From the IMG/VR virus record IMGVR_UViG_3300024518_005299, positions 1-64,000 of that record: a DNA stretch of 64,000 bases; one strand, given 5' to 3'. Of the stretch, positions 5,909-61,999 are shown one piece after another; the first letter of the stretch is position 1, and each line of letters begins with the position of its first letter. Position numbers and translations under genes: made by a program. The notes below the pieces were generated by a model. That model worked only from the letters and a program-made list of their open reading frames with translations. It had not been told where the DNA came from and did not search any database. The DNA comes from a virus.

Positions 5909-6785
5909 AAAACGATATTCACCTGACGAAATACGGACCATTCGTCAGCTGCACAAAGAAGGTTACACTCACCAGCAGATCGCCGATAAGGTGCGCCCAG
6001 GTGTAAAGACCGCTTGGCGATCTATAGGTGAGATGATCCGGAAGGAGCGCAAGGCTAAAGTGCTAGGAGAATCCGCTACCCAGCCTGCGGCATACAGCAT
6101 TGTCCCACCATCTCAACCTTCTACCAAGATTACACTTCCTAGCATCATGGCGGATTCTCTGACAGCAAAAGAATTTATGACTATGATGAATGATGATCAG
6201 CGCGCCCTTTTTGTCGCTCATTACGAAGACTTAAGGGGTGATGCTGATGAGGAAGCATTGACACGCGCCGAAAATGAGATGCTGATTCGTGCATCTTATT
6301 CTAATGTAAAATATTTGCGCGCGCAATCACTTCTGAACACTTCTGAGTCTTACCTGATGGCAGATATGGAGGGTGGTCTTTCTGACTCGGACGCGGATAA
6401 GGCAAAGCGCCGATTCGCGGGTAATCGTGAAATGTATAAGAAAGAAGTTGAGCAATGGCACAAAGAATATATGGAGTTAGTAAACGACCTTAAGCTGACT
6501 CGTAAGCAAAGATTAGATAAGATCAAGGATACGCGCAACACGTTCCTTGACCTTCAACAAGAATTAACAGACCAACTAAAGCGCGATTCTATCGTAGAGG
6601 ATATCAAACGGATCAATCGTTTGACTGAAGATGAGTTTCGTCGAATGGCGCGTGGCGACAAAGGCCCAGATGGCAGAGTATATAATTGGTTATTGGGAGC
6701 ATTTTCAGAATATATATCTGACGAGCCACCGAAGGAGGGGGATGATGAAAACAGGAGTTTATCAGATTCTAAACCTGAAGAATAA
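5895..6785 (+). CDS. HTH/coiled-coil protein, candidate small terminase
   Basis: N-terminal EIRTIRQLHKEGYTHQQIADKV HTH; upstream of terL; function inferred only. Confidence 0.4.
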   Translation: MGLSRKRYSPDEIRTIRQLHKEGYTHQQIADKVRPGVKTAWRSIGEMIRKERKAKVLGESATQPAAYSIVPPSQPSTKITLPSIMADSLTAKEFMTMMNDDQRALFVAHYEDLRGDADEEALTRAENEMLIRASYSNVKYLRAQSLLNTSESYLMADMEGGLSDSDADKAKRRFAGNREMYKKEVEQWHKEYMELVNDLKLTRKQRLDKIKDTRNTFLDLQQELTDQLKRDSIVEDIKRINRLTEDEFRRMARGDKGPDGRVYNWLLGAFSEYISDEPPKEGDDENRSLSDSKPEE

Positions 6786-7671
6786 TAAGTTTTACATAGG
6801 GAGCACTGGCTCTAAAGCGGGATTTATTAAACGTTGGAATGATCATCGATTATTGTTAAAGAAAAATTGTCACCATTCGGTTCATTTACAACGAGCTTGG
6901 GATAAATATGAAGTTGATGCTTTTGTTTTTGAGGTGATTGAATACATTGTTAGATTGGATGAGATGACTGATAAGGAATGGAAGACCTTGATTTTTCAGA
7001 GAGAACAATATTATCTAGATGTATTTTTATTTGCTAGTGATAATGATAATAGATTTCATAAGTTAGGGTATAATATTTGTCGGGTGGCTGGAAGTACGCT
7101 TGGTTTAAAATTAGAACTATCAGAAGACAACCTTAACTTACGTCGTGCTCAGGGTTCGGCATTAGGTAAGTTGAATACTAAATTAGCACGACTTGATGTC
7201 CTAGCCATACTAAATGACTTGTTTATTCATCAAATTTCAGTTAGTGATTTGATTATTAAATACCAAATTAGTCAATCTTCAATCATGGATATTAAACATA
7301 ATCGTACCTGGCAAGACATTGATCGATCTATATATCAAACATTGCCTAATCCGCCAAGACAAAAATTGAGTGCATTAACAAAACAACGGATGTCATTTGC
7401 CAAACGTGGTGAAGGGACGCATCTTTCAAAATTGACAGAATCAAAAGTGATAGAAATTAAAGCAATGATTCAACAAGGTCTAGATAATCATAAAATTGCT
7501 GCAAGATTTAATGTTGATCATAGTAATATTAGTAAAATTCGTACTGGAAAAACCTGGAGGCATATTAATGACGAGAGCAAAATCGCCATACCCCGTCAAA
7601 CCGACGATAATTGTGGACACGAGAGAAAAAACAGCTCATGCTTTATTTCAAGAATCGGAAGAGGGAGATAA
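6742..7671 (+). CDS. GIY-YIG homing endonuclease with two C-terminal HTH modules
   Basis: TGVYQILNLKNNKFYIGS...RWNDH...LQRAWDKY...REQYYLD...GYN; start follows GGAGGGG. Confidence 0.9.
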   Translation: MMKTGVYQILNLKNNKFYIGSTGSKAGFIKRWNDHRLLLKKNCHHSVHLQRAWDKYEVDAFVFEVIEYIVRLDEMTDKEWKTLIFQREQYYLDVFLFASDNDNRFHKLGYNICRVAGSTLGLKLELSEDNLNLRRAQGSALGKLNTKLARLDVLAILNDLFIHQISVSDLIIKYQISQSSIMDIKHNRTWQDIDRSIYQTLPNPPRQKLSALTKQRMSFAKRGEGTHLSKLTESKVIEIKAMIQQGLDNHKIAARFNVDHSNISKIRTGKTWRHINDESKIAIPRQTDDNCGHERKNSSCFISRIGRGR

Positions 7672-8111
7672 AGATGTAAAGGCATATATAAGAGAAAAAG
7701 TTGATGCTGGGGATTATACTATACAAGAGATACCAAATCTTGTAGTGGTAGAAAAAAAAAAGAGATGGAAAGGAATTGTTCACTAATCTGATCTTAAAAA
7801 AAGACAGGTTCTTGCGCAGCGTTGAGAAAATGCGCGCATTTAAATATAAGTATATTATTATACAACAAACCTATGCTGAGTTTCTAGATGTTAAAAACTG
7901 GGCTCATGTAAGTAAAAGCTATCCACGAAGATATCAAGCGATTGCGGCTATAGAGAGCTGGCTGATTTCGTTGTCGCAAAGTGAGGGTATTCATTTTATT
8001 TGGGCGGGGCAGAAGTATGCGCCGCGAATCGCTAAAAAGATTCTCTGCAAATCTTATGAGTATGAAAGGAAACGTTTAATGAGAGAGGATAAGGATGATA
8101 AAGCAATTTGA
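7568..8111 (+). pseudogene. ERCC4/XPF-type nuclease split by a frameshift at A10 (7752-7761)
   Basis: IIVDTRE...GDY...VVEKK in one frame continues as RDGKELFTNL...RF...YIII in the next; removing one A gives one ORF. Confidence 0.8.
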
Positions 8112-8364
8112 TTATGAATGGTTTAACAGTCTAGGTGATAAAGAGTTGATGGATGTTGCTTTTATGGAGGCAATGCGCGAAACCATATCTAGCCCCACAC
8201 AAATAAGACATCTTCTAGCTGCTCTAGGAGAAAGATTGAATAGTAAAATGGTGGCAGATCAGGCACGAGCATCGTCTATAATGAGAGAGATGGATGAAAC
8301 GCTTGACGAGGTCAGGAAGCTCCAACAGGAAATTAGAGATAGAGAGGAGAAGGAGAATGGCTGA
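8095..8364 (+). CDS. hypothetical protein, paralog of 8357..8581
   Basis: Shared WFxxLxD.xL...E.MR...SP...R.LL..LG.RL. Confidence 0.75.
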   Translation: MIKQFDYEWFNSLGDKELMDVAFMEAMRETISSPTQIRHLLAALGERLNSKMVADQARASSIMREMDETLDEVRKLQQEIRDREEKENG

Positions 8365-8581
8365 ACATATGATAAAATGGTTTCACTGCTTAACAGATGA
8401 ACAATTACTACCTATCATCCTTGCGGAGAGCATGCGCACCCAAGGCTCTCCCGAATTAGCAAGAGATCTTTTAGTTGTCTTAGGAGCAAGATTAAAAGCT
8501 CAAGTAGCTGGAGAGATTGACCCAGTGTCAGATTCAGGACGAGCATGGCCTGATCCCCCGACAAGAGCTGATGGGGTATAG
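8357..8581 (+). CDS. hypothetical protein, paralog of 8095..8364
   Basis: ATG 8357 after AGGAGA. Confidence 0.75.
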   Translation: MAEHMIKWFHCLTDEQLLPIILAESMRTQGSPELARDLLVVLGARLKAQVAGEIDPVSDSGRAWPDPPTRADGV

Positions 8582-8717
8582 CATGTGGTATATGCTAGAT
8601 GGTTCTGATCATACAGTTCTAGTAGCGGATCTGACAAGGACAACCAAAGAGATCCCGCCTAAATCTTGGTATGAGGATCGCGCCGGTTATATAATTGAAT
8701 GGAGAGATAAGAAATGA
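8571..8717 (+). CDS. hypothetical protein
   Basis: Fills the gap and overlaps both neighbours. Confidence 0.6.
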   Translation: MGYSMWYMLDGSDHTVLVADLTRTTKEIPPKSWYEDRAGYIIEWRDKK

Positions 8718-18502: not shown

Positions 18503-18513
18503 CTAGTGTATAA
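18503..18513 (+). promoter_or_regulatory. putative late promoter CTAGTGTATAA
   Basis: Motif copy abutting the terminator hairpin. Confidence 0.55.
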
Positions 18514-18514
18514 G

Positions 18515-18548
18515 AAGAGTAGCAGCCGAAAGGTTGCTGCTCTTTTTT
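18515..18548 (+). terminator. intrinsic terminator after MCP
   Basis: 13-bp stem AAGAGTAGCAGCC/GGTTGCTGCTCTT, GAAA loop, T run. Confidence 0.85.
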
Positions 18549-18569: not shown

Positions 18570-19385
18570 ATGGGTAAGATGACGGAGGAGAAGGCAACTA
18601 GGGTAGTTGAGTTATATAAGAAGTACGGCACCGGAGAGAGAGTGGCGAAAGAGTTGGACGTCACTCTTTATATGGTGTATAAGCATCTACGAATGAATGG
18701 GATAGAACCCAAGAAGAATGGTAGCTGGCAACAAAAAGCTGACGCTCAGGCGATGGTTGACCTATATCAACAGGGGCAGTCTATTACACAGATTGCTGAA
18801 CAGTTTAAAATGGCACCTAGTTCGGTTTGGGAGCGTCTTACGCATGCTGGGATAGAGCTACGAAGTCGTGTTGAAGGCTTGGTTGCTGTTGGTTATAAAA
18901 AGCGTGGTGCTGATGAAGAAATTATTAAAATGTATCAAGATGGCATGAACGCAATGCAAATAGCAAAGCATTATGGATTGAAATATCAGGATACTATATG
19001 TGAGGTGCTTCATAAACACAACATCAAGATTGAAATTCACGGTGAGCGCAGCCCCCATTGGAAGGGTGGCAAATTAGAGTTAAATAAGATGGTGAGGAAT
19101 TGTGCAAAATATGTCAATTGGCGAGATGAGATTTTTCGTGCATCTGACTATACCTGCGAGGTAACGGGTCAGCGTGGGGACAGGCTCAATGTTCACCATA
19201 AGAAGACATTAGCTGAGCTACTAGATGACTTCATGCAAGCCAATCCTAATGGATTTACATCTCAGGAAGAGCGCTTGGCGGCTATAGAGAGCTTTGATCC
19301 TTTTTGGGATAAGGATAATGTGATGGTTGTGACGGAAAAAGTCCACCAGTCTATGCATAGCTCCGTTAGTGTATTAGATATATAG
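18570..19385 (+). CDS. HNH endonuclease with N-terminal HTH repeats
   Basis: Three HTH-like repeats, SPHWKGG, WRDEIF..SDYTCEVTG...LNVHHKK...N...H. Confidence 0.85.
   Translation: MGKMTEEKATRVVELYKKYGTGERVAKELDVTLYMVYKHLRMNGIEPKKNGSWQQKADAQAMVDLYQQGQSITQIAEQFKMAPSSVWERLTHAGIELRSRVEGLVAVGYKKRGADEEIIKMYQDGMNAMQIAKHYGLKYQDTICEVLHKHNIKIEIHGERSPHWKGGKLELNKMVRNCAKYVNWRDEIFRASDYTCEVTGQRGDRLNVHHKKTLAELLDDFMQANPNGFTSQEERLAAIESFDPFWDKDNVMVVTEKVHQSMHSSVSVLDI
19366..19376 (+). promoter_or_regulatory. putative late promoter TTAGTGTATTA inside the HNH 3' end
   Basis: Motif copy 20 nt before the next ATG, ahead of an AGGAGGT RBS. Confidence 0.6.
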
Positions 19386-23376: not shown

Positions 23377-24177
23377 ATGGCGACTGGAGTATATCAAATA
23401 CGGAATATTGTGAATGAGAAATGTTATATAGGAAGTGCTGCGGGGAAGAATGGGTTCGACGGTAGGTGGGGTATTCATTTACATTATTTAAGACATTCCA
23501 CGCACGCTAATAGTTATTTACAAAATGCATGGAATAAACATGGAGAGGATGCTTTTGTTTTTGAGATTATAGAAGAATGTGTGTCTGATCAATGCTTGAT
23601 GCGTGAACAACACTATCTAGATGCTCAACAACCAGAGTATAATATCAACCCTACGGTAAGTAGTCGTCTTGGTGCAAAACTTAGTGATGAGTCAAAGGCT
23701 AAAATAAGTAAAGCTCATATGGGTAAAAAGGTATCTATTGAAGAAGCTCAGCGTCTTAGAACATTAGCCTGTGGGGCAAAGCGGTCTGCTCAACATCGAG
23801 AGGCGATTAGTCAAGCTCAAAAAGGTAAATCAAAAAGTGATGAACATAGAGCTAAACTATCTCAAGCAATGATTGGTAATCCAAATCGTGTGGGAACTAA
23901 ACATAGCGCACAGTCTAAAATTAAAATTGGCGCTGCTCATAAAGGAAAGGTGGTAAGTCAAGAAACACGTATAAAAATATCTCTTGCTATGAGTAAGCGT
24001 GTAGGTTCACAAACACCATCAGCGAAGTTGGATGAAAACAAAGTTAGAAGCATTTTACAAATGTTGAATAATGGCGTTAAGCAAAAAGACATTGCTAATC
24101 AATTCAATGTTTCTGTTAATACTATTTCTAGAATCAAATTAGGGCTGGCATGGAAACATGTTACGGGAGGTGTTTAG
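23377..24177 (+). CDS. GIY-YIG homing endonuclease (NUMOD3-like repeats, C-terminal HTH)
   Basis: TGVYQIRNIVNEKCYIGS; repeated S.E.R.KIS....G units. Confidence 0.9.
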   Translation: MATGVYQIRNIVNEKCYIGSAAGKNGFDGRWGIHLHYLRHSTHANSYLQNAWNKHGEDAFVFEIIEECVSDQCLMREQHYLDAQQPEYNINPTVSSRLGAKLSDESKAKISKAHMGKKVSIEEAQRLRTLACGAKRSAQHREAISQAQKGKSKSDEHRAKLSQAMIGNPNRVGTKHSAQSKIKIGAAHKGKVVSQETRIKISLAMSKRVGSQTPSAKLDENKVRSILQMLNNGVKQKDIANQFNVSVNTISRIKLGLAWKHVTGGV

Positions 24178-25236
24178 GTGTTCCATAAGTTGAGATTTTT
24201 GTTAAAGCACAGCTATAGGGAGTTTATTGACGCCGAACTTTTAAGAGACGGAAATTATGACACTATAACATCAGGGCAACAGTTTTATGATGGTGTTGAT
24301 CTTAGTAAATTAGTACCAGATACTGATGCTGAAGTGTTGGCTGAGGGTGGCTATGCCGCTGGTCAAGTTTGGCAATCACTTTTTATTAATTGGTGCTATC
24401 AAAATCCGCCAGCTCTTAATCCGTCAGTCATTCTGAATCATTGGCCTACTGCTTTTCGGGCAAGTGGTGTTTATATTGATGGTGCATTTCGTTTAGAAAA
24501 TGACGCTGTCTATCCTCATAGCGTGGATCACCTTAATGGACGTATCATTTTTGATAGTCCTATTACAGATTTTGATAAATTGATTCATGCAGACTTTACT
24601 TATAAGACAGTCAAGGTTTTAAATTTACGTGAATTTAATAATCAGTTGAGGAATGGTATATTAGAACAGCAATATAAAACTAACCCATTTACAGGAGGGC
24701 AATTAGTTTACCCATCAGGTAGCAATAAAATCGTACCACTCCCCATTATATTTGTCGAAGATGTGGGGCGTACTTTTGACGGAGGATACCAATTAGGCGA
24801 TAGGTCTCTTATCGCGCGTGATGAGTTAACTTGTGAGATTTGGGCATTAGATGAAAGTGTTCGAGATAATCTTATTGATCTTGTGTCCTTTCAGGAGGCA
24901 AAAAATGTCCCGATTATTAATTATAATATTGCCCCATTTCCTTTGTCAGGACTTAAAAATGAGTTAAGTCCAGCATATGTACCATATATTAGTTTAGCAT
25001 TAAATGAGCCTCTGCCAGGACCGGCTTTCTCAGGATTGAATCCTATAGCATATAGAGGGTTTATTAAGGAAACTGAGCTGGTAGATTTAGACACCAATTT
25101 CGGTGAATCTCATACTCAACAGGACGTCTTTGAGAGCGCTGTGGTACGTCTGGTGGTTGAGACTTATCCCATTATGCCTACGACCCCATTTGGCTTCGAT
25201 ACCAATTTAGAGGGTGACGGAGGTCTGGAGGGCTGA
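24178..25236 (+). CDS. putative tail terminator/neck protein
   Basis: Directly upstream of tail tube; IWALDESVRDNLIDLV. Confidence 0.45.
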   Translation: MFHKLRFLLKHSYREFIDAELLRDGNYDTITSGQQFYDGVDLSKLVPDTDAEVLAEGGYAAGQVWQSLFINWCYQNPPALNPSVILNHWPTAFRASGVYIDGAFRLENDAVYPHSVDHLNGRIIFDSPITDFDKLIHADFTYKTVKVLNLREFNNQLRNGILEQQYKTNPFTGGQLVYPSGSNKIVPLPIIFVEDVGRTFDGGYQLGDRSLIARDELTCEIWALDESVRDNLIDLVSFQEAKNVPIINYNIAPFPLSGLKNELSPAYVPYISLALNEPLPGPAFSGLNPIAYRGFIKETELVDLDTNFGESHTQQDVFESAVVRLVVETYPIMPTTPFGFDTNLEGDGGLEG

Positions 25237-25260: not shown

Positions 25261-25271
25261 TTAGTGTATAA
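25261..25271 (+). promoter_or_regulatory. putative late promoter TTAGTGTATAA
   Basis: Motif copy upstream of tail tube, followed by two inverted repeats. Confidence 0.7.
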
Positions 25272-35531: not shown

Positions 35532-36274
35532 TGCATGGAATTTATCAAATACAAAATCTTGTGAATAGCAAGCTTTATCTTGGAAGCACTACTGTCTATG
35601 GATTTAATCGTCGTTGGCGTTCTCACTCAACTGCTTTGAAACGAAATAAGCACTCCAATAGACACTTGCAGTTTGCTTGGAACAAGCATGGGGAAGAAGT
35701 CTTTATATTTGAAGTTATTGAGTATGTCATTAGATTAGATGAGATGACTGATAAAGAATGGAAAACCTTGGTTCTTCAGAGGGAGCAATATTATCTAGAT
35801 ACAATTTTATTTGCTAGTTGTAAAGATCAAAGATTTCATAAATTAGGGTATAATATTTGTCGTAGGGCTGGTAATACATTGGGTTGTAAAATGTCTGAAA
35901 AAACTAAAGCAGCGATGAGTAAAGCTCATAGCGGTGAGAATAATCCTATGCATGGTAGAAATCATTCAGCTTCTACTAAAAAGAAGATAGCGATGAAAGC
36001 CACAGGAAGAGAGCATTCGATAGAATCTCGTAGGAAGATGAGCGAATCACGTAAGGGTAAGCAAGTAGGATCAGACAATCCTATGTATGGCTCGATTCGT
36101 TCTCGTGGAGAGTTGAACGCGCAGGCAAGACTTACTATAAATAATATAAAAGATATTAAAAAATTATTGACTGAAGGCATATCCCAATATATTATCGCTC
36201 AATTATTCAATGTGCGACAATCAACTATTAGTAGAATTAATACTGGTAAAAGATGGGGGCATATAAGTGGCTGA
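35528..36274 (+). CDS. GIY-YIG homing endonuclease
   Basis: HGIYQIQNLVNSKLYLGS; NUMOD3-like GENNPMHG repeats; C-terminal HTH. Confidence 0.9.
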   Translation: MMHGIYQIQNLVNSKLYLGSTTVYGFNRRWRSHSTALKRNKHSNRHLQFAWNKHGEEVFIFEVIEYVIRLDEMTDKEWKTLVLQREQYYLDTILFASCKDQRFHKLGYNICRRAGNTLGCKMSEKTKAAMSKAHSGENNPMHGRNHSASTKKKIAMKATGREHSIESRRKMSESRKGKQVGSDNPMYGSIRSRGELNAQARLTINNIKDIKKLLTEGISQYIIAQLFNVRQSTISRINTGKRWGHISG

Positions 36275-37754
36275 TCCTCAATCGACTATTCCCGGTTTAA
36301 GCGCGTCTTTTATACAGGTAAGTTATGGAGGTAGTATATTACGCCCGTCACCATTGATTGCGCACTCTGTGCAAATCGAGCGTGATGATGCTGACAATCG
36401 AGAAGTTATCCGTACGACTAGGACGTTAACGGGCACGATCCTTACTTCGGGGATCAGCTACCATTTTGTTAGGCAGAAACAGCGTGAATTAGAAGACGCA
36501 TTTTCGATAGATAATCTTGAGTTTAAGATTCTTGCTACAGCGGGCCATCCATGTTTGGTCGCTGGCACGCCAATTGAGTCTGGTGTTTATCCTCTCGTGC
36601 AGTCTATTGATATTCGAGAAGACCAACAATTTAATCGTTTATCGTACAGTATTGTCTTGGAGGACGCAACCGCTCCGAGCGGGATCTCTGGCTTAGTCAC
36701 CAACCTAGCAGACACTTGGTCTTACACGGAGAATGACACAGAATGTCTAGTTGATATCACTCACAATATTAGTGCTCAAGGTGTAAATACTGCAATCTCT
36801 GGATTGCCATCTAATGCCTTAAGCAATGCGCAGGCTAGGGTCAATCAGCTACTTGGTCTCGCGTCAGCGCCTCAAGGGTTCCCTTCTCATGTAGAGCCGG
36901 GTAGTGGCAGTAATGTAAGGTTCTATGAAATAACTACATCTCGTGAAGAAACCGTCAGCGCTGAAGATGGGTCTTATGCTGTTTCAGAAAACTTCAAGTT
37001 GGTCTCGGGACTATTGCCTTTTAATGATGAAAGGACTGCTCAATTTCAACTAGACGATGCTAGTATCACGACCATTACGCTTCAAGGCACCGTTCGTGGC
37101 ATGGGGCGCACTAATGATGGGGCTCCTGCTGGATCTAGTCGCTCTAGTGGAGGAACTGGATTCGTCAATGCTCTAAGTGGTTTTGAGAACTTAGTACGTC
37201 CAGAGTGGACTAGCGATGCATTGAATGTTTATGATCGATATGGTGGGTCTGGCGCATTAGTTATTGGTAGGCCTCAATCAACTTCGATCTCGCAGAATCC
37301 TTGTAATGGCACGATTGGCTATAGCGTCACCTATACAGACAATCCAACGGAAAACCTACCTAGTGGTATTCAAGAAAGAGCCTGTTCGGTTCAGCGCAAT
37401 GATCCTGTTGTTTCTAATGCAATTATTCCTGTTCCATTTAGCGCCCTGGGTCCTGTATTTCAGAGACTATGCTCGACCTCAGCGGGCACCTATGAGGTCA
37501 CTTGTAATGTAATTGCAACCAATACTGGTCAAGAAGTGATAGATACAAATAGAGCGATTGAAGTTGCGGAACAAGAAATCATTAAATTACAGCCTAATCC
37601 CGCAAATTTCATTAAGCTTAAGTTGACTGGTCGCCCTCAAAATGTGGATAGAATTAATAGAAGCATAAGTACGACTTGGACTTGGACGTTCAGTCAAGAT
37701 ATCGCCACCGTCCCCTCAGACACAGGTCCAATCACATTAGGGAGGATAAGCTAA
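36267..37754 (+). CDS. putative distal-tail/hub protein
   Basis: Follows TMP; beta-rich repeated domains. Confidence 0.5.
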   Translation: MADPQSTIPGLSASFIQVSYGGSILRPSPLIAHSVQIERDDADNREVIRTTRTLTGTILTSGISYHFVRQKQRELEDAFSIDNLEFKILATAGHPCLVAGTPIESGVYPLVQSIDIREDQQFNRLSYSIVLEDATAPSGISGLVTNLADTWSYTENDTECLVDITHNISAQGVNTAISGLPSNALSNAQARVNQLLGLASAPQGFPSHVEPGSGSNVRFYEITTSREETVSAEDGSYAVSENFKLVSGLLPFNDERTAQFQLDDASITTITLQGTVRGMGRTNDGAPAGSSRSSGGTGFVNALSGFENLVRPEWTSDALNVYDRYGGSGALVIGRPQSTSISQNPCNGTIGYSVTYTDNPTENLPSGIQERACSVQRNDPVVSNAIIPVPFSALGPVFQRLCSTSAGTYEVTCNVIATNTGQEVIDTNRAIEVAEQEIIKLQPNPANFIKLKLTGRPQNVDRINRSISTTWTWTFSQDIATVPSDTGPITLGRIS

Positions 37755-38287
37755 TGGCTACATTCCCAACCGTTTCATTCTTACAATTTGATGTTGACAC
37801 AGACCCTAGTGGTGTTCGTGACTTAGAAGCGAGTGCAGTTAAGGTATTAGATACGACCATTACTGGATGTTTGGATCTTGGTAATACTAATACTTCTACC
37901 TCTGGTGCGATTAGTGATACTACGATGTTTGTTTTTCGTGTGTCTGATCTAGGTGATGCTTCTGGTGTCTATAATTTACGATTTTACTTAGAGAATGCCT
38001 CAGCATTTAGTGTTGGCAATTATCGCTTCTTGTATAAAGTTGCAACTCACTATCAAGGTGCGGGTTTCACTCTTGGTCTAGGTGACTTAGATATTCCAGT
38101 TGTTCAGCCAACGACACAGAATGTCTTAAGTACAAGCGGTCAGCCTACTTTGAGTGGGACCTTTGACGGGCATGTCTCACAGTATATTTATCTAGCTGTT
38201 TTTACTGATACTGACGTCCCATTCGGAAGTTACGGAGGTTGTGGAGCTGGAAGCTTTAGATATAAAATGGTGTATGACTTCTCATGA
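37754..38287 (+). CDS. virion tail protein, paralog of 38284..38874
   Basis: Shared C-terminus YI...F.D...P.G.(Y/F)G.CG.GS.R....DF. Confidence 0.65.
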   Translation: MATFPTVSFLQFDVDTDPSGVRDLEASAVKVLDTTITGCLDLGNTNTSTSGAISDTTMFVFRVSDLGDASGVYNLRFYLENASAFSVGNYRFLYKVATHYQGAGFTLGLGDLDIPVVQPTTQNVLSTSGQPTLSGTFDGHVSQYIYLAVFTDTDVPFGSYGGCGAGSFRYKMVYDFS

Positions 38288-38874
38288 GTTCAGGTGTTCC
38301 ATTTCCAGTTTTACAGTTTTCCTCATGGGATAATTCTGAATTTGCAGACCCTGTAGGAACGCGCCACTTAGTATCTGGTGCTTTTGCCTATGATAAGTTA
38401 GTGGGGATAGGCTGCGATTTTGCCATGGCGTTTAATAACCTTCAACTTAATGCTGGGGAAAATCAGCCTTTCGTAGGGTCGAACGTGGCGGTTATTAACT
38501 TCAGCGTGCCCAATATGGGCGAGCTGCAAGCCTCTGGATTGACGGCGGTTTCTAACTTTAGATTATGGATTCCGGCAGGCTCCGGCTCTATCATAGACAC
38601 CCCAGGAGCCCACTTAGAGTTTTTCACAAGCGGTGTTTGGTCACCTAATGTTGACTTTCCTAGTGGCCATGGGCAGCCCTTTTTACGAACTTTACCTACT
38701 CAATTTAATGTTCGCCAAATAGACGGCAGGGCTGAATTGACTAGTTATACAGATGTTGAAGTGTCAGAATGGATATATATTAAAATGTTTCTAGACGAAC
38801 GATTCCCTTTAGGAACTTTTGGAGTATGTGGCAGTGGTAGCTTAAGACCAAGGCTCACATTTGATTTTTATTGA
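38284..38874 (+). CDS. virion tail protein, paralog of 37754..38287
   Basis: Same shared C-terminal motif. Confidence 0.65.
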   Translation: MSSGVPFPVLQFSSWDNSEFADPVGTRHLVSGAFAYDKLVGIGCDFAMAFNNLQLNAGENQPFVGSNVAVINFSVPNMGELQASGLTAVSNFRLWIPAGSGSIIDTPGAHLEFFTSGVWSPNVDFPSGHGQPFLRTLPTQFNVRQIDGRAELTSYTDVEVSEWIYIKMFLDERFPLGTFGVCGSGSLRPRLTFDFY

Positions 38875-44241: not shown

Positions 44242-44877
44242 ATGAGAAAAACACTTCATCAAAAGGATTTAGATTTTTTTCAAACACCTAATGAACTTAA
44301 TTGTTATTGGGCGGGTTTCATAGCGGCTGATGGAAATATCCAGCCTTCTAAAAATACTGTATGCGTTGTGCTTGCAGCAAAAGACAAATGTCATTTGGAA
44401 AAATTAGCAAAAGATATTCAGTATACTGGATCTGTTAAAGACACTATTACTAAACTAAATAATAAATCTTATCCGGGTGCCCGTTTGAGTATTTGTGGCG
44501 CATCTAATATCATCCACGATCTAGAATTGAATTTCAACATCATAGCCAATAAGTCTTTGACCTTACAATCACCCCAACATCTATCTAGAAGATTATCGTT
44601 GGCATTTATTATTGGATATTTTGATGGTGATGGCTCTACTGGAGTATACAAAAGTACAGGTCGTAGAATGGTGTTTTTAGGCACTTACGATATGCTTAGC
44701 TGGATTAAAGTAATATTTGATGAAGAGTTTCCACAACATGTTTATAAAAATCTGCCCACTGTACGTAAACATAAGGGCATATATGAATATGGCGTTTGTG
44801 GTAAAAGGGCAGAGTATATCATGTCCAAATTGCGAGAAATTGATGTGCCTCGTCTGGGAAGAAAGTGGGCTAGATGA
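44242..44877 (+). CDS. LAGLIDADG homing endonuclease
   Basis: YWAGFIAADGNI and FIIGYFDGDGS. Confidence 0.9.
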   Translation: MRKTLHQKDLDFFQTPNELNCYWAGFIAADGNIQPSKNTVCVVLAAKDKCHLEKLAKDIQYTGSVKDTITKLNNKSYPGARLSICGASNIIHDLELNFNIIANKSLTLQSPQHLSRRLSLAFIIGYFDGDGSTGVYKSTGRRMVFLGTYDMLSWIKVIFDEEFPQHVYKNLPTVRKHKGIYEYGVCGKRAEYIMSKLREIDVPRLGRKWAR

Positions 44878-47120: not shown

Positions 47121-47132
47121 GATTTATTCTAT

Positions 47133-47143
47133 TTAGTGTATAA
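47133..47143 (+). promoter_or_regulatory. putative late promoter TTAGTGTATAA
   Basis: Motif copy followed by AGGAGG. Confidence 0.7.
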
Positions 47144-47160: not shown

Positions 47161-47874
47161 ATGCAAACAGGTGTGTATCAGATTAGAAATCTTAAAAATG
47201 ACAAGCTCTATATTGGCAGCGCCGCCGGTCAACGCGGTTTTGAGCACCGCTGGGGTAATCATTTGAGTGATTTGAATCTTGGTCGACACGACAATTCTTA
47301 CTTACAAAGAGCTTGGGATAAGTATGGTGCTGAAGCTTTTATTTTTGAGATTCTAGAGATGTGTCTTTCCGAGCAATGTATTGAGCGAGAGCAGCACTAT
47401 ATGGATTCTTTACTTTTTGCTAGCTGTAATGATCAGAGATTTAAACAATTAGGATATAATATTCTGAGGGTGGCTAGTAGTTCGTTAGGGTATAGACATT
47501 CTGATGAAACAAAGATTAAGATGAGCCAATCAGCTAGTGGCAAGAACCATCCTATGTTTGGTAAAAATCTTACACAAGAGCGCAGAATGAAGATTAGTAA
47601 AGCATTACAAGGTAATAAGAACTCTCAAGGCGTTGTGCGTTCTGAAGAGGAGAGGCGACGAATCTCACAATTGCATAAAGGAAAGATAGTGTCTTTAGAA
47701 ACGAGAAATAAGTTATGTTTAGCAAATGCCAAGCTAACAATAGAACAAGTGCGTCAAATTAGACATATGTTAGCATTAGGGTGTGCTCAACAAAAGATTG
47801 CGGAAGTTTTCAATATGTCGAAAAAGGCTATTTCTAAGATTAAATTAGGACAAACATGGGGTGACATCAAATGA
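47161..47874 (+). CDS. GIY-YIG homing endonuclease
   Basis: TGVYQIRNLKNDKLYIGS; NUMOD3-like repeats; C-terminal HTH. Confidence 0.9.
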   Translation: MQTGVYQIRNLKNDKLYIGSAAGQRGFEHRWGNHLSDLNLGRHDNSYLQRAWDKYGAEAFIFEILEMCLSEQCIEREQHYMDSLLFASCNDQRFKQLGYNILRVASSSLGYRHSDETKIKMSQSASGKNHPMFGKNLTQERRMKISKALQGNKNSQGVVRSEEERRRISQLHKGKIVSLETRNKLCLANAKLTIEQVRQIRHMLALGCAQQKIAEVFNMSKKAISKIKLGQTWGDIK

Positions 47875-52976: not shown

Positions 52977-54012
52977 GGAATTAAAAATGGTAGAGAATGA
53001 TAAGGATGCCAAGCGCGAGCATAAGATATTTATAAAAACTTTACAAAAAGAATATACCGACATGGAAGTTTGTGGTGCTCACGAACTCAAGCTACCCAAA
53101 AGTAATTCTACTGGTTCGCTAACTCTAGATATTAATCTTCATATCCCTTGTTATGACGGTGCGATAGTTGAGATCATTAGCAATGAAGGCGCCGGCAAGA
53201 CTACCTTAGCTTTGTCGATTATGGCAGAGGGCGCTAAGCGTGGTAAGCAACTACTATACATTGATCAAGAGCGCGCCCTTCAACGCACTCTCGTGGATTC
53301 ATTTCCTGAGTTGCGCGAGCCGGGTGTGTTAGAGATTGTTAGCTCTGAGACGGGTGAGGGGGCTTTAGGCATAGCAGAGGCTTGGGCGTTACAATATCCT
53401 GGCTCAATTACTGTGGTAGATTCTGTAGATGCCCTGATCCCTTCTCAGGTTGAACAGAAAGCGTTGGGTGAAACCGATGTAGGCTCGCTACCCATGTTGA
53501 TGAGCAGAGGTTGCCGTAAGCTTTCTCAGGCTGTTGGTAAGTCTGGCAGTGTTATCATTTTTATTAATCAGTGGCGCACAGCAATTGGAACTTATGGCGA
53601 TCCTAATAAAGCTAGTGGCGGAAAGGCCCTGCCGTTCTATGCACGTCAACGTATTGAGCTATTAAACATCACGTCTAAAAGGCGGATCATGGATGATGAT
53701 GGTGTGCAGATTGGGCATATTGTAAAATTCAAAGTTTTAAAGAATAAGGTCGCGCCACCATTTGTGAGTGGTGAATTTCCTTTGATTTATTCTAAAGGTA
53801 TTGATATTTATACAGAATTAGCTACACTGGCTGGGGATTTTGGCATTATTGAAATGGATAAAAAGTATTACTTAATCCCAAATGACAAAGGCGAGATAAA
53901 AAAACGCCCCAAAGCAACGGTTGTCAATATGCTAAGGGCAGACCCTGAGTTTTATCAATCTACTCTAGATGATTTAAAGGAGTTATATCCGGAGACCTTC
54001 TCTAGTGAGTGA
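52963..54012 (+). CDS. recA: RecA/UvsX-like recombinase
   Basis: EGAGKTT, YIDQERAL, VVDSVDAL, FINQWR, GGKALPFYARQRIEL, KNKVAPPF. Confidence 0.93.
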   Translation: MKIIEELKMVENDKDAKREHKIFIKTLQKEYTDMEVCGAHELKLPKSNSTGSLTLDINLHIPCYDGAIVEIISNEGAGKTTLALSIMAEGAKRGKQLLYIDQERALQRTLVDSFPELREPGVLEIVSSETGEGALGIAEAWALQYPGSITVVDSVDALIPSQVEQKALGETDVGSLPMLMSRGCRKLSQAVGKSGSVIIFINQWRTAIGTYGDPNKASGGKALPFYARQRIELLNITSKRRIMDDDGVQIGHIVKFKVLKNKVAPPFVSGEFPLIYSKGIDIYTELATLAGDFGIIEMDKKYYLIPNDKGEIKKRPKATVVNMLRADPEFYQSTLDDLKELYPETFSSE

Positions 54013-54790
54013 TAAAAAACATAAGAATGTCCGACATGGACATGCTACAAGAAAGGATGGTACCTCTAAGGAATATAATGCATGGAGAGGTATGATTCAA
54101 CGTTGTACAAATCCCAATGCTACGAAGTATCCGCGCTATGGAGGGCGTGGGATCAAAGTATGTGATCATTGGTTGGGTTCATTTGAGAATTTTTTTGACG
54201 ATCTAGGATTTGCGCCGTCATCAAGTTATTCATTAGACCGTATTGATAATGACGATGATTATAAGCCTGAGAATTGTCGATGGGCGACTGCTAAAGAACA
54301 AGCGCGGAATAGACACAATACAGTAACTTTTAATGGACAGAGTCTTGCTGAATATTGCGAAGAACATGAGTTGAATTATCATACCGTGATGACTCGTATA
54401 CAGAGAGGCTATTCTGTCGAACGTGCTATTTCAATGCCAGTTTATAACAGGATTAGTAAAGGCGCTCAGCATCTTGCTGATATTATCAGAGAAATCTTCC
54501 CACATCAAAAAGTTGTTTGTGAATATAATGTTGCAGATAGGGGATATTTACCATTAGATTTTTTTATTCCAAGCTTAAATATTGCCATGGAATATGACGG
54601 AGAGATGCATACCATTTTTTCACCTCTATATCATGTTGACCGTGCTGGTTTCTTAGCAATGAAAAAGCGAGACTTAGAGAAGGACGAGTTGTGCGAGCAA
54701 AAGGGGATTACTCTAGTGCGTGTGGCATATAGTGAAAATATGAGTAGAGGCTTGGTGTTAGATAAGATAGAGGAAGCGCAAAATGGCTAG
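54005..54790 (+). CDS. HNH endonuclease fused to a DUF559/Vsr-like nuclease
   Basis: YGGRGIKVC...SLDRIDND..Y.PENCRWAT, then LDFFIPSLNIAMEYDGEMH...RDLEKD...ITLVRV. Confidence 0.85.
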   Translation: MSDKKHKNVRHGHATRKDGTSKEYNAWRGMIQRCTNPNATKYPRYGGRGIKVCDHWLGSFENFFDDLGFAPSSSYSLDRIDNDDDYKPENCRWATAKEQARNRHNTVTFNGQSLAEYCEEHELNYHTVMTRIQRGYSVERAISMPVYNRISKGAQHLADIIREIFPHQKVVCEYNVADRGYLPLDFFIPSLNIAMEYDGEMHTIFSPLYHVDRAGFLAMKKRDLEKDELCEQKGITLVRVAYSENMSRGLVLDKIEEAQNG

Positions 54791-57370: not shown

Positions 57371-57903
57371 TGAGCGTTTATGAGAAGATGAGGGTGTATT
57401 TTTCCTCACCCTATGAGCATGATCGTGCTGAAACGTCGTGGAAGTCAACAATAGAAAACTTTATGATAAGGAAGTTAGATTGGCGTATTCAAACTATCGA
57501 CCCTTGTTCAGACTTATGTGATGAAGCTAATCTTATTGATGAGATGAAGGCTAACGAAGACTGGTTAGGAGTATATTCGTTTTGTGCAAATATTGTGGAG
57601 AGCGATCTTGCAATGTTGAATCGTTGTGAGGGTATGATCGCATACCTACCCTGTAACGCAAGAACTTTTGGCACTACCCATGAGATTATTTATGCTTTAG
57701 CAAATAATATTCCAGTAGTGATGGTTATGCCAGAAGGGATTGACAAAGTGCCGCATTGGTTATGGGGAATTTTAGGTCCGAATCGCATCTTTGACAATCT
57801 AGAAGAAGCGGCAACGACTTTAGTAAAGAGAATGCAAGTAGCAAGAGGAGAACAAGCAAATGACACAGTTCATTACCCTAAGCGGTCGAGAATTGACTTA
57901 TGA
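57370..57903 (+). CDS. nucleoside 2-deoxyribosyltransferase/N-glycosidase-like protein
   Basis: VYFSSP...DLAMLNRCEGMIAYL...GTTHEIIYA...IPV. Confidence 0.75.
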   Translation: MSVYEKMRVYFSSPYEHDRAETSWKSTIENFMIRKLDWRIQTIDPCSDLCDEANLIDEMKANEDWLGVYSFCANIVESDLAMLNRCEGMIAYLPCNARTFGTTHEIIYALANNIPVVMVMPEGIDKVPHWLWGILGPNRIFDNLEEAATTLVKRMQVARGEQANDTVHYPKRSRIDL

Positions 57904-57916
57904 TAGATGTCAGTAA
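57860..57916 (+). pseudogene. relic 5' end of the dNMP kinase gene
   Basis: GAGGAG RBS + MTQFITLSGRELT versus kinase MAKFITLSGKKQT. Confidence 0.75.
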
Positions 57917-58547
57917 ACAAAGATTCAAATATCAACATACCATCCCTATACCGGATCTTGATAGTGAAGCATTTTGTTACTGGTTAGGGTTTATCTTAGC
58001 TGATGGATGTATTACTGATACTGACAGTGGTTCTGATCGTTTTATTATAGGCCTTAAGCAAGATGATAAAGATCATTTAGAAAAGTTACGCAAGTGGTTA
58101 AGATCTAATCATCCAATACGTTATATAAGAAAAACCAAGGCTTATGATTTTAGGATACGATCTCAAGGATTGTGCAATATGCTAGGTGAGTTTGGCGTCA
58201 CCCCTAGAAAGTCACTTACTGCTTGTGTGGACCCTAGATTAAAAAATAATCGCCATTTTTGGCGTGGAATGATTGATGGAGATGGCACTATATTTATTGA
58301 TACTCGTGATAAATTATTTTGTTTTGGCTTGCTCGGTACTGAAAATGTATGTATAGATTTTTGGAATTTTTGTTATGACATTGATTCTACTTTTAATAAG
58401 GTTTCAATTTGCAAACCCCCATGGAATGGATATTCTGTAAGATGTTCTGGAAGAAAAGCTAAAAATATTGCTAGAAAGCTTTACGGAGATTGTAATATTT
58501 ATCTGGATAGAAAGAAAAAATTAGTAGAGGAAAATATTGATGGCTAA
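57900..58547 (+). CDS. LAGLIDADG homing endonuclease
   Basis: YWLGFILADGCI and FWRGMIDGDGT. Confidence 0.9.
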   Translation: MIDVSKQRFKYQHTIPIPDLDSEAFCYWLGFILADGCITDTDSGSDRFIIGLKQDDKDHLEKLRKWLRSNHPIRYIRKTKAYDFRIRSQGLCNMLGEFGVTPRKSLTACVDPRLKNNRHFWRGMIDGDGTIFIDTRDKLFCFGLLGTENVCIDFWNFCYDIDSTFNKVSICKPPWNGYSVRCSGRKAKNIARKLYGDCNIYLDRKKKLVEENIDG

Positions 58548-59289
58548 ATTTATTACATTAAGTGGAAAAAAACAGACTGGCAAGGATAGCGCCGCAAAGA
58601 TTATTCGTCAGTACTTAGTAAGTGAGAGCTTTAGTTTTTGTTTAGATAATGAAGGCGTAGTGCGCCTACAAAGCTCCGTAGGTATTGGTCCTTTAGGTGT
58701 GGAGGGGATTAATCGTGTGCACGTTGTGCATTTTGCAGACGCTCTCAAAAAGGCATGCAATATCATTTTTGGTATTCCATTAGAAGACATGGAGACTGAA
58801 GAGGGAAAACAGAAGGTAACACATGTAAAATGGCCATGCAATATGGCATCATATGATATTGATCAGGAGCCGACATGGGTCCCCTCTAGTCGGTATATTG
58901 ATTATTGTCATAAGAATAATCGTGAAATTAATGGTGGCGCTAGCCACATGACCGTTCGCGAGATTCTTCAATTTGTAGGAACTGATCTTCTGAGGAATCA
59001 ACTAGATCCAGATATCTGGGTAGAGTCAGTATTTCGTCAACCATGGAAAGAAGACGATGTTGTGATCATTGCAGATGCACGCTTCCCCAATGAAGCAGAT
59101 ATCGCCCTTCAACATGGGTTGTTGATCAATATTGAACGTGAAACTAATTTGGCGAGTGATGGACATAGGTCCGAAACAGCCTTGAATGATTATGCTGATT
59201 ATCATTATAGTGTGGATAATAATAGCTCTGTGGATGATTTCGTTATGCATTTAAATAATGTGATGTCAGAACAGAATATCTTAACATGA
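58540..59289 (+). CDS. deoxynucleoside monophosphate kinase
   Basis: P-loop SGKKQTGKDS, HFADALK, REILQFVGT, IADARFPNE, HRSE. Confidence 0.9.
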   Translation: MAKFITLSGKKQTGKDSAAKIIRQYLVSESFSFCLDNEGVVRLQSSVGIGPLGVEGINRVHVVHFADALKKACNIIFGIPLEDMETEEGKQKVTHVKWPCNMASYDIDQEPTWVPSSRYIDYCHKNNREINGGASHMTVREILQFVGTDLLRNQLDPDIWVESVFRQPWKEDDVVIIADARFPNEADIALQHGLLINIERETNLASDGHRSETALNDYADYHYSVDNNSSVDDFVMHLNNVMSEQNILT

Positions 59290-60670: not shown

Positions 60671-60673
60671 AAA

Positions 60674-61060
60674 ATGATTTATAACTTTCAATGTAGGACT
60701 TGCCAAGCAGATCTAGAAGTGATATTTGCCGCTAGTGAATATGATAATAAGGTAACTGCGGATAACAGGCTCAAGCGTAAAAAATGTGAGAAATGCAACT
60801 CGATTTCGTTTTATCGACACATAATAGAGGCACCAAGCGTCTTGGGTGGAAATAAAGGTTACGTGAGTATGGAGCGCTGGCAACAGAATAATCCAGACCA
60901 CGCCAAAAAACACGAAGAAGAACTTAAAAACAAAATGGAAGACCGTCATCGTAAGCGCGTGCTTAATAAGATCAACAAGCAGATAGGCGGCGACCGGAGC
61001 GAGGATAGGCATAAGGATTATGGTAGCGGCAAGGAAGAAAAGTTAGACTCTAATGATTAG
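60674..61060 (+). CDS. FmdB-like zinc ribbon protein
   Basis: MIYNFQCRTC...CEKC. Confidence 0.7.
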   Translation: MIYNFQCRTCQADLEVIFAASEYDNKVTADNRLKRKKCEKCNSISFYRHIIEAPSVLGGNKGYVSMERWQQNNPDHAKKHEEELKNKMEDRHRKRVLNKINKQIGGDRSEDRHKDYGSGKEEKLDSND

Positions 61061-61340
61061 GACTCAAGAATCTCTTGATGAGCTACTGCAGTCGTGTGAA
61101 TATGCCGCTTACGTTGACCACGCGATAGGCTCACACAACCCTCATATGCTTTGGACTATTCTTGGTGATCTGCGCTACAATCTATTATGGATTATCATGC
61201 GTGATGATACTAATGAATTATTCATTGAATGTATTATGCCTACGGTCTCTCCATTAAACGTAGACGGAATTCATATGGATGACGCACAACTCGTGCAAGA
61301 ACATAGCGATTATATGTTTGATAAATATAAGAATAAGTGA
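61053..61340 (+). CDS. hypothetical protein
   Basis: Overlapping co-oriented ORF. Confidence 0.7.
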   Translation: MIRTQESLDELLQSCEYAAYVDHAIGSHNPHMLWTILGDLRYNLLWIIMRDDTNELFIECIMPTVSPLNVDGIHMDDAQLVQEHSDYMFDKYKNK

Positions 61341-61381
61341 ATAATATGGCGAAGGCAAGGAAGAAAAATTGAGCGACCAAA

Positions 61382-61999
61382 GTGATGGTATATAATTATA
61401 ATAAACATTACTTTGATAATATTGATTCGGCTGAAAAGGCTTATTGGTTGGGCTTTCTTTGGGCTGACGGATGTCTTTTTAATAGCAAGACTCATCCTAA
61501 ACATGTTATTTTTTCACTTCATAAAAAAGATAGATTGTCTATTAAGACGCTTTTAAATGCGCTCGAATCTAATCATCCAATTCGTACTCAGAAAAATAAA
61601 TATGATCGTGTAGAATTTTACGGTGCAGATTTTTATGATTCTCTTTTTCAAAAAGGATTTGAACCCCGTAAGTCTAAGTTAAATAGGATACCAAAATTTC
61701 CCTCAAGATATGATTTTGATTTTATAAGAGGCGTTTTTGATGGTGATGGATGTGTTTATTATCATCAAGCTCGCAATCAAACCTGTGTTGAAATAGCTGG
61801 TAATTTTAAAATAGTTGATTATATTTTAAACGTTATGCAGTTCGGCACATGTTCTCGTATGTCTTTGAAAGGTACTTGGCGTTGGAGGGCTTCTGGTAAT
61901 CAGGTAGCTAAAAGATTCGCACAAAACATTTATTATGATAATAATATAATATGTATGAAAAGAAAACGTGAAAAATTTAAGAGGTTTATTAATGTCTGA
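61382..61999 (+). CDS. LAGLIDADG homing endonuclease
   Basis: YWLGFLWADGCL and FIRGVFDGDGC. Confidence 0.9.
   Translation: MMVYNYNKHYFDNIDSAEKAYWLGFLWADGCLFNSKTHPKHVIFSLHKKDRLSIKTLLNALESNHPIRTQKNKYDRVEFYGADFYDSLFQKGFEPRKSKLNRIPKFPSRYDFDFIRGVFDGDGCVYYHQARNQTCVEIAGNFKIVDYILNVMQFGTCSRMSLKGTWRWRASGNQVAKRFAQNIYYDNNIICMKRKREKFKRFINV

Follow-up and report, generated by a model that had tools for sequence, protein, structure and literature searches.

Free-standing homing endonuclease genes (HEGs) are major drivers of phage mosaicism and marker exclusion, and to our knowledge their entry without harm into genomes nearly devoid of non-coding DNA is known mainly from phage T4. Here we describe nine predicted HEGs (HEG1 to HEG9, numbered by position) in the first 64 kb, hereafter the window, of the single 131,680-bp IMG/VR virus record IMGVR_UViG_3300024518_005299, and compare their insertion sites with those of relatives and with the closest described systems. 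In T4, the mobA gene and the gene 60 bypass element reportedly form one mobile cassette (Bonocora et al., PNAS 2011). As in that cassette, one HEG of the window (HEG8) appears to travel with sequence that keeps the invaded gene functional while destroying the target, with the difference that compensation is by translational bypass in T4 and by a duplicated gene start here. T4 carries 15 HEGs, 12 of them free-standing, compared with about 17 in the present genome. The free-standing T4 genes lie between conserved genes, and five of the 12 overlap the upstream open reading frame (ORF), for which translational coupling has been proposed (PMC2988022). The T4 seg (GIY-YIG) and mob (HNH) genes resemble those of the window in lying between conserved genes, in being absent from related phages and in having neither intron nor intein, and also in their starts, which overlap upstream ORFs (UAAUGA, or overlaps of 11–24 bp, in T4), and in the arrangement of terminators and promoters around the HEG (PMC2988022). 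Unlike T4, the present phage has free-standing LAGLIDADG genes. The T4 review leaves duplication of flanking gene ends unmentioned (the word has 0 occurrences) and describes no in-frame fusion to a resident gene (PMC2988022).

Elements that replace the end of the gene they invade have been described in eukaryotes. The mORFs of fungal mitochondria (Allomyces atp6; Glomus atp6, atp9, cox2 and nad3) carry a diverged end of the invaded gene, and the native relic is closer to the relatives than the inserted copy is (PMC3630166); both traits recur at HEG8. The mORFs replace the 3' (C-terminal) ends of organelle genes, whereas HEG8 replaces the 5' end (11 codons plus the Shine-Dalgarno sequence, SD) of a phage gene, where the overlap of two resident genes makes a replacement start necessary. 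In the yeasts Torulaspora and Lachancea, each integration of a WHO element replaces the 3' end of FBA1; these elements are likewise splicing-free, with a carried gene end and relics beside the gene (PMC7282813), but they are found in the eukaryotic nucleus, rely on a nuclease of intein origin, act on 3' ends and leave arrays of relics, where the window has single relics only. We found no description of the phage 5'-end replacement form in the literature, mORFs and WHO elements both acting at 3' ends. Intronless homing and end-replacing elements are thus already known, and the phage 5'-end replacement and in-frame fusion described below are variants of them.

Nine endonuclease genes and their empty alleles

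All nine genes lie on the plus strand. Pfam searches assigned four to the GIY-YIG family, HEG1 (6742–7671), HEG3 (23377–24177), HEG4 (35528–36274) and HEG6 (47161–47874), most of which also have NUMOD3 and a C-terminal helix-turn-helix (HTH), and three to the LAGLIDADG family, HEG5 (44242–44877), HEG8 (57900–58547) and HEG9 (61382–61999). HEG2 (18570–19385) matches phrog_8446 (1e-15) and is composed of two HTH_7 repeats followed by a C-terminal HNH motif (..NVHH..DN..HQSMH), while HEG7 (54005–54790) matches PHROG HNH families (phrog_3377, 4e-51). A first-pass annotation made from the letters alone had counted the same four GIY-YIG, three LAGLIDADG and two HNH genes at about 10% of the window, with junction overlaps of 0–100 nt; the nine genes sum to 6,696 nt (10.5%), and the overlaps measure 0–104 nt. 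With the exception of HEG2, the genes have a GC content of 0.31–0.38, compared with 0.429 ± 0.031 for the resident genes.

Relatives were collected as about 30 IMG/VR and metagenome contigs (loci L001–L053, 45–89% protein identity); site occupancy was determined by tblastn synteny, and the junctions were then read base by base. Every one of the nine sites is empty of its HEG in relatives, with up to 18 distinct empty-allele relatives per site, and the flanking genes there are intact.

The absence of splicing elements, also claimed by the first-pass annotation, is borne out by two observations. An Rfam search gave zero matches at the gathering score and zero at E<=1, so that there is no intron signal, and all genes flanking the nine HEGs are collinear with their homologs in relatives, none being split; no group I ribozyme interrupting a gene was found. 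Since Rfam is matchless and every flanking gene is collinear, we conclude that neither intron nor intein is involved. Many phage HEGs are borne by introns or inteins, and HEG7 is an in-frame insertion, which would be the natural grounds for supposing that splicing restores the interrupted genes. We nevertheless regard this as extremely improbable, given also that the kinase gene downstream of HEG8 has a complete start of its own and that the spacers left at that site in L014 and L024, at 59 and 23 nt, leave no room for an intron. HEG7 was also considered as an intein and rejected: Pfam detects no Hint domain, and with boundaries MS/D...RI/SKG (slashes marking the joints) the insert starts with Asp and ends with Arg-Ile, without intein terminal residues.

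Across the whole genome, nine GIY-YIG paralogs (30–43% identity), three LAGLIDADG genes and four copies of an HNH-like module were found, about 17 such genes in total. Five of the GIY-YIG paralogs and three full-length copies of the HNH-like module, the latter with a Zn ribbon, are located beyond the window, at genome positions 71683–72312, 75469–76293, 87723–88436, 91508–92644, 93014–93688, 94848–95507, 97597–98121 and, on the minus strand, 117552–118169. At 378 aa, the ORF at 91508 may represent a further fusion or else a read-through.

Six insertions at gene junctions

HEG1 to HEG6 are positioned at junctions that in the empty alleles consist of a stop-to-start gap of 0–130 nt or a 4-nt ATGA overlap, and at all six sites the N-terminus of the downstream protein is the same as in relatives. 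The first-pass annotation had proposed that the endonuclease genes invade 5' gene ends and carry replacements for what they interrupt. Homing without splicing remains the best reading for all nine genes, but the carried replacements are not supported for these six. A Smith-Waterman search for duplications across each HEG, scored against shuffles, singled out only the repeat of the g60674 3' end at HEG9 (z 5.3), with a marginal GGATAAGGATAATG match at HEG2 (p~0.05); together with a comparison of the first 15 codons, it gave no duplicated gene end across HEG1 to HEG6. Nor did the first 15 codons downstream of HEGs show recoding relative to other window genes (difference ~0; Mann-Whitney p = 0.18). 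The six sites thus come close to the outcome named in advance as contrary to that proposal, insertion into neutral intergenic DNA with the downstream 5' ends unchanged. The invaded DNA is not neutral, however, since in four of the six cases the native SD or stop/start overlap has been displaced and the 3' end of the HEG stands in its place. At two of the six (HEG3 and HEG4) the downstream start is GTG rather than ATG. The junctions listed at first pass are real, with three starts corrected (ATG 7568 downstream of HEG1, the kinase ATG 58540 and the polymerase ATG 61991), and the SD-like strings that it listed at HEG 3' ends are all present, although one of them (AGGAGGT at 19384) is resident and not supplied by the HEG.

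The start of HEG1 overlaps the end of g5895-6785 by 44 nt and is preceded by AAGGAGG, which it uses, as had been stated for this gene and for HEG6. Lacking a stop of its own, the ORF of HEG1 (GIY-YIG and HTH) continues for 104 nt beyond the true start of the next gene, ATG 7568. In L001 and L002 the HEG is absent and its slot, between the g5895 and g7568 homologs, is occupied by a Cys-rich ORF of 137 aa (L001:3379–3792) with a DnaJ-like zinc-finger motif (CPVCEGRGE..), which has homologs in L002 and L003 and is absent anywhere in the window's genome. The HEG1 ATG is at the position of the ATG of the Cys-rich ORF, inside the end of g5895, and L003 keeps the Cys-rich gene plus a HEG1-type C-terminal HTH remnant directly before the downstream start.

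HEG2 occupies a truly intergenic region, between the terminator of the capsid gene and the next promoter. The empty alleles (L001, L002, L018 and L019) have a stop-to-start gap of 114–126 nt that contains, in order, the stop, the terminator, a single TTAGTGTATTA motif, the SD and the ATG. In the window, the stop is followed by an additional promoter-like motif, TAGTGTATAAG (18504–18547, plus strand), which overlaps the 5' base of the intrinsic terminator hairpin, then by the HEG, by the resident motif TAGTGTATTAG in the last HEG codons, and by the SD and ATG. The 3' end of HEG2 therefore reads through the resident promoter (19367–19377), and its TAG stop overlaps the resident SD. A promoter motif had been noted on both sides of this gene; both copies are present (18504 and 19367), but the downstream one is the resident promoter and occurs in the empty alleles too. 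Searches of HEG2 against PDB sequences gave nothing useful. At the same junction L003 has another ORF of 509 aa (L003:18324–19853), with repeated FGSW..A..AG modules and a Vsr/DUF559-like motif (CDFYLP..LWVEYDG), and these sequences make the junction look like a hot spot at which nuclease genes of different kinds settle.

HEG3 (GIY-YIG, NUMOD3 and HTH) begins 7 nt past the upstream stop, and its last codons, GGGAGGTGTTTAG, form an SD-like signal before the GTG start at 24178. The empty alleles L051 and L053 have a 1–3 nt spacer and an ATG start, while L018 and L019 contain a frameshifted remnant consisting of the first 31 and the last ~30 codons, with the same 3' end and the same GTG start. 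HEG4 overlaps the tape-measure stop by ATGA and the next gene by 8 nt (GTGGCTGA). Its empty alleles have spacers of 2 nt (L022) and 11 nt (L021), and the downstream start in the window is GTG instead of ATG; in L023 the site holds an in-frame mini-ORF of 34 codons with the identical 8-nt overlap.

HEG5, which also has PHROG support, is positioned exactly in the ATGA stop/start overlap of two tail genes. The upstream gene ends in TAA with the HEG ATG immediately next to it, the end of the HEG (..GATGA) re-forms the overlap, and the downstream N-terminus, MTCSDDP, is unchanged. The gene is missing in 13 distinct relatives, five of which have the ATGA overlap, the others having 1–2 nt spacers or unresolved starts. 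Located at this junction in L008 (427–648), and also in L009, L010, L030 and L034, is a 73-aa Cys-rich ORF (CRSC..CRFC..CPSCSCC) that may be a remnant of an HNH-type gene.

HEG6 lies between a conserved TTTAGTGTATAAT motif and the next start. In 18 distinct empty alleles the spacer is 34–57 nt and comprises the upstream stop inside TTTAGTGTATAAT, usually a palindrome (GACTAGTCA), an SD of the AGGAGAGG type and the start. The window retains TTTAGTGTATAAT, followed by the HEG with an AAGGAGG of its own, whereas the palindrome and the native SD are gone; the end of the HEG, GGGGTGACATCAAATGA, is a new SD plus ATGA overlap, and the downstream gene is unchanged. A 16-nt repeat-like stretch before the promoter (47121–47136) may derive, as a relic, from the end of the upstream gene. 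The motif TAGTGTATAAT, of the extended -10 type, occurs 10 times in the window at <=1 mismatch (1.9 expected), always on the plus strand and between 1511 and 47144 (for example at 25262, 28471 and 47134), often with the TAG stop of the upstream gene inside TTTAG. It is kept in relatives at the g44874/g47871 junction along with the palindrome, and is probably a phage promoter class.

Duplicated gene ends and an in-frame fusion

The remaining three genes differ from the junction insertions. Invasion of an initiation region, as proposed at first pass, is supported at HEG8, where kinase codons 1–11 and the SD are duplicated, and in the fusion of HEG7, while HEG9 is accompanied by a duplicate of the upstream gene's 3' end.

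HEG8 is located between g57370-57903 and a dNMP kinase gene. In the naive alleles L011, L033 and L040 the kinase gene and its upstream neighbour overlap by 32–47 nt (47 in L033), the kinase start lying within the 3' end of that neighbour. In the window, the corresponding position inside the 3' end of g57370-57903 holds a relic of the kinase 5' end with its SD (57860–57892, MTQFITLSGRE), which reads GCAAGAGGAGAACAAGCAA ATG ACA CAG TTC ATT ACC CTA AGC GGT CGA GAA and matches L033 at 25 of 33 coding nucleotides and at 27 of the 30 just upstream, in agreement with the relic start first noted upstream of 57900. g57370-57903 ends in TGA, overlapping the HEG8 ATG in an ATGA overlap, and the 3' end of HEG8 overlaps by 8 nt the working, diverged kinase start at 58540–58572 (MAKFITLSGKK), which reads GTAGAGGAAAATATTG ATG GCT AAA TTT ATT ACA TTA AGT GGA AAA AAA. 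This copy is identical to the relic at 21 of 33 positions, to the footprint allele L014 at 28 of 33 and to naive L033 at 20 of 33. Kinase codons 1–16 of the window are 81% L014-like and 58% L033-like, and in codons 17–48 the order is reversed, closer to L033. The duplication is too diverged for a nucleotide Smith-Waterman score and was established through the naive alleles. HEG8 is the only one of the nine genes to combine a duplicated gene end beyond the nuclease with a relic, and over these short stretches the relic is nearer to the naive alleles than the carried copy is.

g57370-57903 itself was considered as a kinase fragment and ruled out, full-length homologs (58–75% identity) being present in eight loci from six distinct contigs; the kinase relic is confined to its last ~45 nt, a consequence of the overlap between the two genes in the naive alleles. 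The slot between the primase and the dNMP kinase varies among relatives and is filled by this 177-aa ORF (no family match) in the window, by a 240-aa HAD-like hydrolase (L006:17795–18517) or by nothing (L005 and L028). On the simplest rationale HEG8, like HEG4 and HEG5, would have landed at the upstream stop, a point ~11 codons into the kinase. Because that stop lies so far into the kinase, only an insertion carrying a second junction could keep both genes intact.

L014 and L024 contain both kinase starts without an endonuclease gene, so that naive, occupied and decayed alleles are all represented at this site. These two loci could alternatively represent a pre-insertion state, in which a tandem duplication had already separated the overlapping g57370 and kinase genes and the LAGLIDADG gene later landed in the spacer; by sequence reading, the last ~10 codons of HEG8 do resemble the g57370 3' end in the same phase. 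The 59-nt spacer of L014, however, aligns with the last 42 nt of HEG8, coding for IYLDRKKKLVEENI, at 34 of 42 positions, a score reached by 0 of 500 shuffles. The aligned stretch reaches upstream of any possible g57370 duplicate, and LAGLIDADG relatives align as far as residue 205–211 of 215. The L014 spacer is more likely a deletion remnant of HEG8, because the match extends beyond the duplicable g57370 sequence, and we consider a duplication preceding the insertion quite unlikely. L024 keeps ~22 nt of the HEG8 3' end, a weaker match (26 of 500 shuffles).

HEG9 is positioned upstream of the DNA polymerase gene. The relatives have the polymerase start overlapping the stop of their g60674 homolog (ATGACTAA or ATGACTGA), and HEG9 is absent from 11 of 11 relatives covering the junction. 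The window has two copies of the g60674 3' end. Copy A (61019–61060) is the functional end of g60674-61060, with its stop overlapped by the start of g61053 (ATGATTAG), and copy B (61345–61395) is a relic of ~45 nt, YGEGKEEKLSDQSDGI followed by a stop, recognizable by a 17-nt core with 1 mismatch (z = 5.3 against shuffles). Between them is a 95-aa ORF (61053–61340) absent from most relatives; L014 has a similar-looking ORF in this slot. The HEG9 start overlaps the stop of copy B just as the polymerase start overlaps the g60674-homolog stop in the empty alleles, and the HEG9 end, AATGTCTGA, re-forms an 8-nt overlap with the polymerase start at 61991. The initiation context of HEG9 has thus been duplicated from the 3' end of the upstream gene, a duplication not recorded in the first-pass annotation.

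At the HEG7 site, all relatives examined (16 distinct sequences) have a stand-alone ORF of 112–117 aa ((M/V)SKGA..), the GTG or ATG start of which overlaps the recombinase stop by 8 nt (GTGAGTAA) and the stop of which overlaps the DnaB start. In the window, GTG AGT is followed by a 147-codon HNH-like and HTH module (54011–54451, within the N-terminal part 54005–54451) and then by ATT AGT AAA GGC.. (ISKGAQ..), the resident ORF (54452–54790). The insertion is therefore in frame after codon 2, in line with the reported fusion to the resident gene's start, and the second copy of the resident start codon is ATT. The module belongs to a free-standing family with three paralogs in this genome, comprising a Zn ribbon, a core (YGGRGI..SLDRIDN.G.Y.P.NCRWAT) and an HTH, all of the free-standing homologs ending exactly at the fusion point; the HEG7 module has neither the Zn ribbon nor a stop of its own.

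The AF2 model of HEG7 (pLDDT 86) shows HNH-like, HTH and Vsr-like parts only. Residues 147–261 match Vsr (1cw0, VIA Z 10.4), DUF559 (3hrl, 9.3) and I-Bth0305I (3r3p, 9.1), Foldseek gives a probability of 1.0 for Vsr, and the N-terminal module matches the HNH enzyme PacI only weakly (Z 5.9). The alignment of the resident domain keeps D (LFLDIY), E-x-D-G-x-x-H (FEYDGEQH) and R-D, residues read from the sequence alignment alone. The resident gene is accordingly modeled as itself a small Vsr-type nuclease beside a recombinase gene. It shares the catalytic fold of the EDxHD enzymes (I-Bth0305I in a phage recA intron and the free-standing Hef type; PMC3239194), which resemble HEG7 in having an N-terminal DNA-binding region and a C-terminal Vsr-like nuclease, HEG7 being located beside a RecA/UvsX-like gene. 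HEG7 differs from them in lacking a sequence-level match in the PDB, where searches with it gave nothing useful, in having an HNH-like module and one HTH rather than two NUMOD2 repeats, and in that the domain is mostly stand-alone in relatives.

Fused homologs from other contigs, at 49–66% identity, occur in the protein database, P0002 to P0004 without the Zn ribbon and P0005 and P0006 with it and with the resident GTG read as Val. In a tree of the resident domain, fused forms appear in at least three places beside unfused relatives (for example P0003 with L012), with three fused/unfused changes, at least two of them forced by well-supported branches; on the sequences, this scatter fits repeated gain or loss at one precise site. 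The window copy of the resident domain has a long branch (0.85, compared with 0.04 for the fused P0002) and has lost a conserved EHFHG stretch, which suggests relaxed constraint after fusion.

Some or all of the nine genes might instead have been domesticated, encoding nucleases or DNA-binding proteins that work for the phage and have ceased to home, with HEG7 as a functional two-domain recombination or replication enzyme. Possible roles would include exclusion of co-infecting phages, degradation of host DNA, regulation and recombination. The Vsr-fold ORF is indeed present in every relative examined, between the UvsX-like recombinase and DnaB and coupled on both sides, which argues against mobility of that part; the fused forms found elsewhere are diverged, and the fusion has therefore been maintained over time; and HEG domestication is documented in ICP1 phages (PMC10448857). 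None of the nine HEGs, however, is conserved in position among relatives, their multi-copy families, AT-richness and pseudogene remnants fit selfish turnover, and the long branch of the resident domain points to relaxed constraint rather than refined function. We regard domestication as unlikely.

Probable homing, decay and significance of the nine genes

Taken together, the nine genes are best interpreted as free-standing HEGs that entered the phage lineage by intronless homing, for which we estimate a probability of about 80%. The observations behind this estimate are the gene families, their absence in relatives, the junction anatomy, the duplications, footprints and remnants, the polymorphic fusion and the AT-richness, and from them we infer that the proteins are active nucleases with target sites, that they home, that disruption of the target confers self-immunity and that the HEG ends have a role in translation. 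During co-infection, the nuclease would cleave, at a gene junction or close to it, the allele of a related phage that lacks the HEG, and recombinational repair would then transfer the HEG, along with part of the DNA beside it, to the cleaved genome. Since the genes are packed with 0–10 nt spacers or stop/start overlaps, insertions would survive only if the neighbours stay translated. The HEG start would take over the SD or stop/start overlap formerly serving the next gene, and the HEG 3' end would provide a new SD and re-form the overlap (ATGA or 8 nt). Where g57370 and the kinase overlap by 32–47 nt, insertion at the g57370 stop would remove the first ~11 kinase codons, and because the kinase start is severed in this way the cassette carries a second, diverged g57370/kinase junction, the native copy being left as a relic. 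At HEG7 the inserted gene would have lost its stop and the resident start would have become ATT, so that the HEG is translated as an N-terminal extension of the Vsr-fold nuclease. Later decay would proceed by internal deletion, with the ends tending to persist.

Several points weigh against intronless homing as the origin of these genes. For none of the nine did relatives yield an intact ortholog at the matching site, so that homing here may not be recent. The nearest relatives of HEG8 (<=40% identity) are located at another junction, between the g24178 and g25333 homologs, HEG8 itself being absent from all relatives, with no orthologs at the kinase site in IMG/VR. None of the IMG/VR and metagenome relatives is closer than ~80% amino acid identity; as a consequence, insertion points are mapped only to a few nucleotides, and no co-conversion tract is traceable save the short one in the kinase, a mosaic of just 33–48 nt that gives modest support. 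SD-like strings before starts are normal in packed operons. Finally, in the HNH-like module of HEG7 the alignment reads Arg in place of the first His of the HNH_3 type, and the module may only bind DNA.

Intact GIY-YIG HEGs occur in relatives at other junctions, where the window has none (after g25333, after g28107, before g38284 and before g49087). Decayed remnants are present in relatives at four of the nine sites (HEG1, HEG3, HEG4 and HEG8) and at two other junctions. The remnants include an in-frame N-terminus plus HTH remnant in L040 and an L008-type remnant that has lost its catalytic core. Both ends are kept in each of the four GIY-YIG remnants that carry internal deletions (L023, L040, L018/L019 and the L008 type), and the 3' end adjoining the downstream start is kept in seven of seven remnants (those four plus L003, L014 and L024). 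From these few cases, the pattern fits a HEG 3' end that has become the initiation region of the downstream gene.

The remnants also testify that several other lineages formerly carried HEGs, and closely related pairs of occupied and empty alleles were not found, so the genes could be old residents of the clade that are kept only in this genome and were lost from relatives by precise deletion. We consider such a history improbable. The empty alleles are seamless (ATGA, 8-nt overlaps or 1–3 nt spacers) in up to 18 relatives per site and would need many exact deletions, whereas the decay actually observed is untidy, with remnants and frameshifts; the HEGs are AT-richer than the resident genes, and the fused state of HEG7 requires at least 2–3 changes on the tree.

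INPHARED nucleotide searches in near and distant modes gave no deposited phage matching the window, and the best protein matches of its large terminase subunit (TerL) are 24–26% identical. All window genes are on the plus strand from ~2.8 kb on. The structural genes encode the large terminase, the portal, a highly conserved 342-aa protein that is probably the capsid, a 2,052-aa tape measure and large tail proteins. They are followed by a replication block encoding a UvsX-like recombinase, a DnaB-like helicase, a primase, the dNMP kinase, an exonuclease and the DNA polymerase. Two adjoining genes of ~200 aa (37676–38874) are mutual paralogs (~27% identity), and the pair is kept in relatives. 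In L003, terL is split (L003:8438–11518), with residues 1–182 and 167–681 ~1 kb apart, which may reflect an intron, an intein or a HEG insertion; the window terL is uninterrupted.

Taken as a whole, the finding is a well-documented case of probable intronless homing in a very HEG-rich uncultured phage, with three informative variants: replacement of a 5' end, a resident Vsr-fold nuclease fused in frame, and duplication of the end of an upstream gene. One genome contains three solutions to insertion into packed DNA, namely seamless insertion at stop/start joints, duplication of an overlapped start (the 5' mirror of mORF and WHO elements) and read-through fusion. With its ~30 relatives, it provides a natural series of naive, occupied and decayed alleles at several sites, which makes testable both self-immunity from target disruption combined with a carried, diverged gene end and the idea that HEG termini come to belong to the signals by which the host gene is expressed. 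Annotation is affected too, since relic mini-starts, fused ORFs and HEG ORFs that run too long are readily mis-called. A broader reading, which we advance as possible though doubtful, is that free-standing phage HEGs follow a general grammar of translation-neutral cassettes: they would land at stop/start joints, seize the resident initiation signal and bring along a portable substitute within their final codons, supplied by the conserved C-terminal Trp-Gly/Arg codons of the GIY-YIG family or, elsewhere, by a duplicated gene end. Their two ends would become indispensable to the expression of adjoining genes, so that dead HEGs persist as mini-ORFs instead of disappearing cleanly, and a fusion of the HEG7 type would be one stable end-point. 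If this grammar is true, HEG persistence would amount to addiction at the level of translation.

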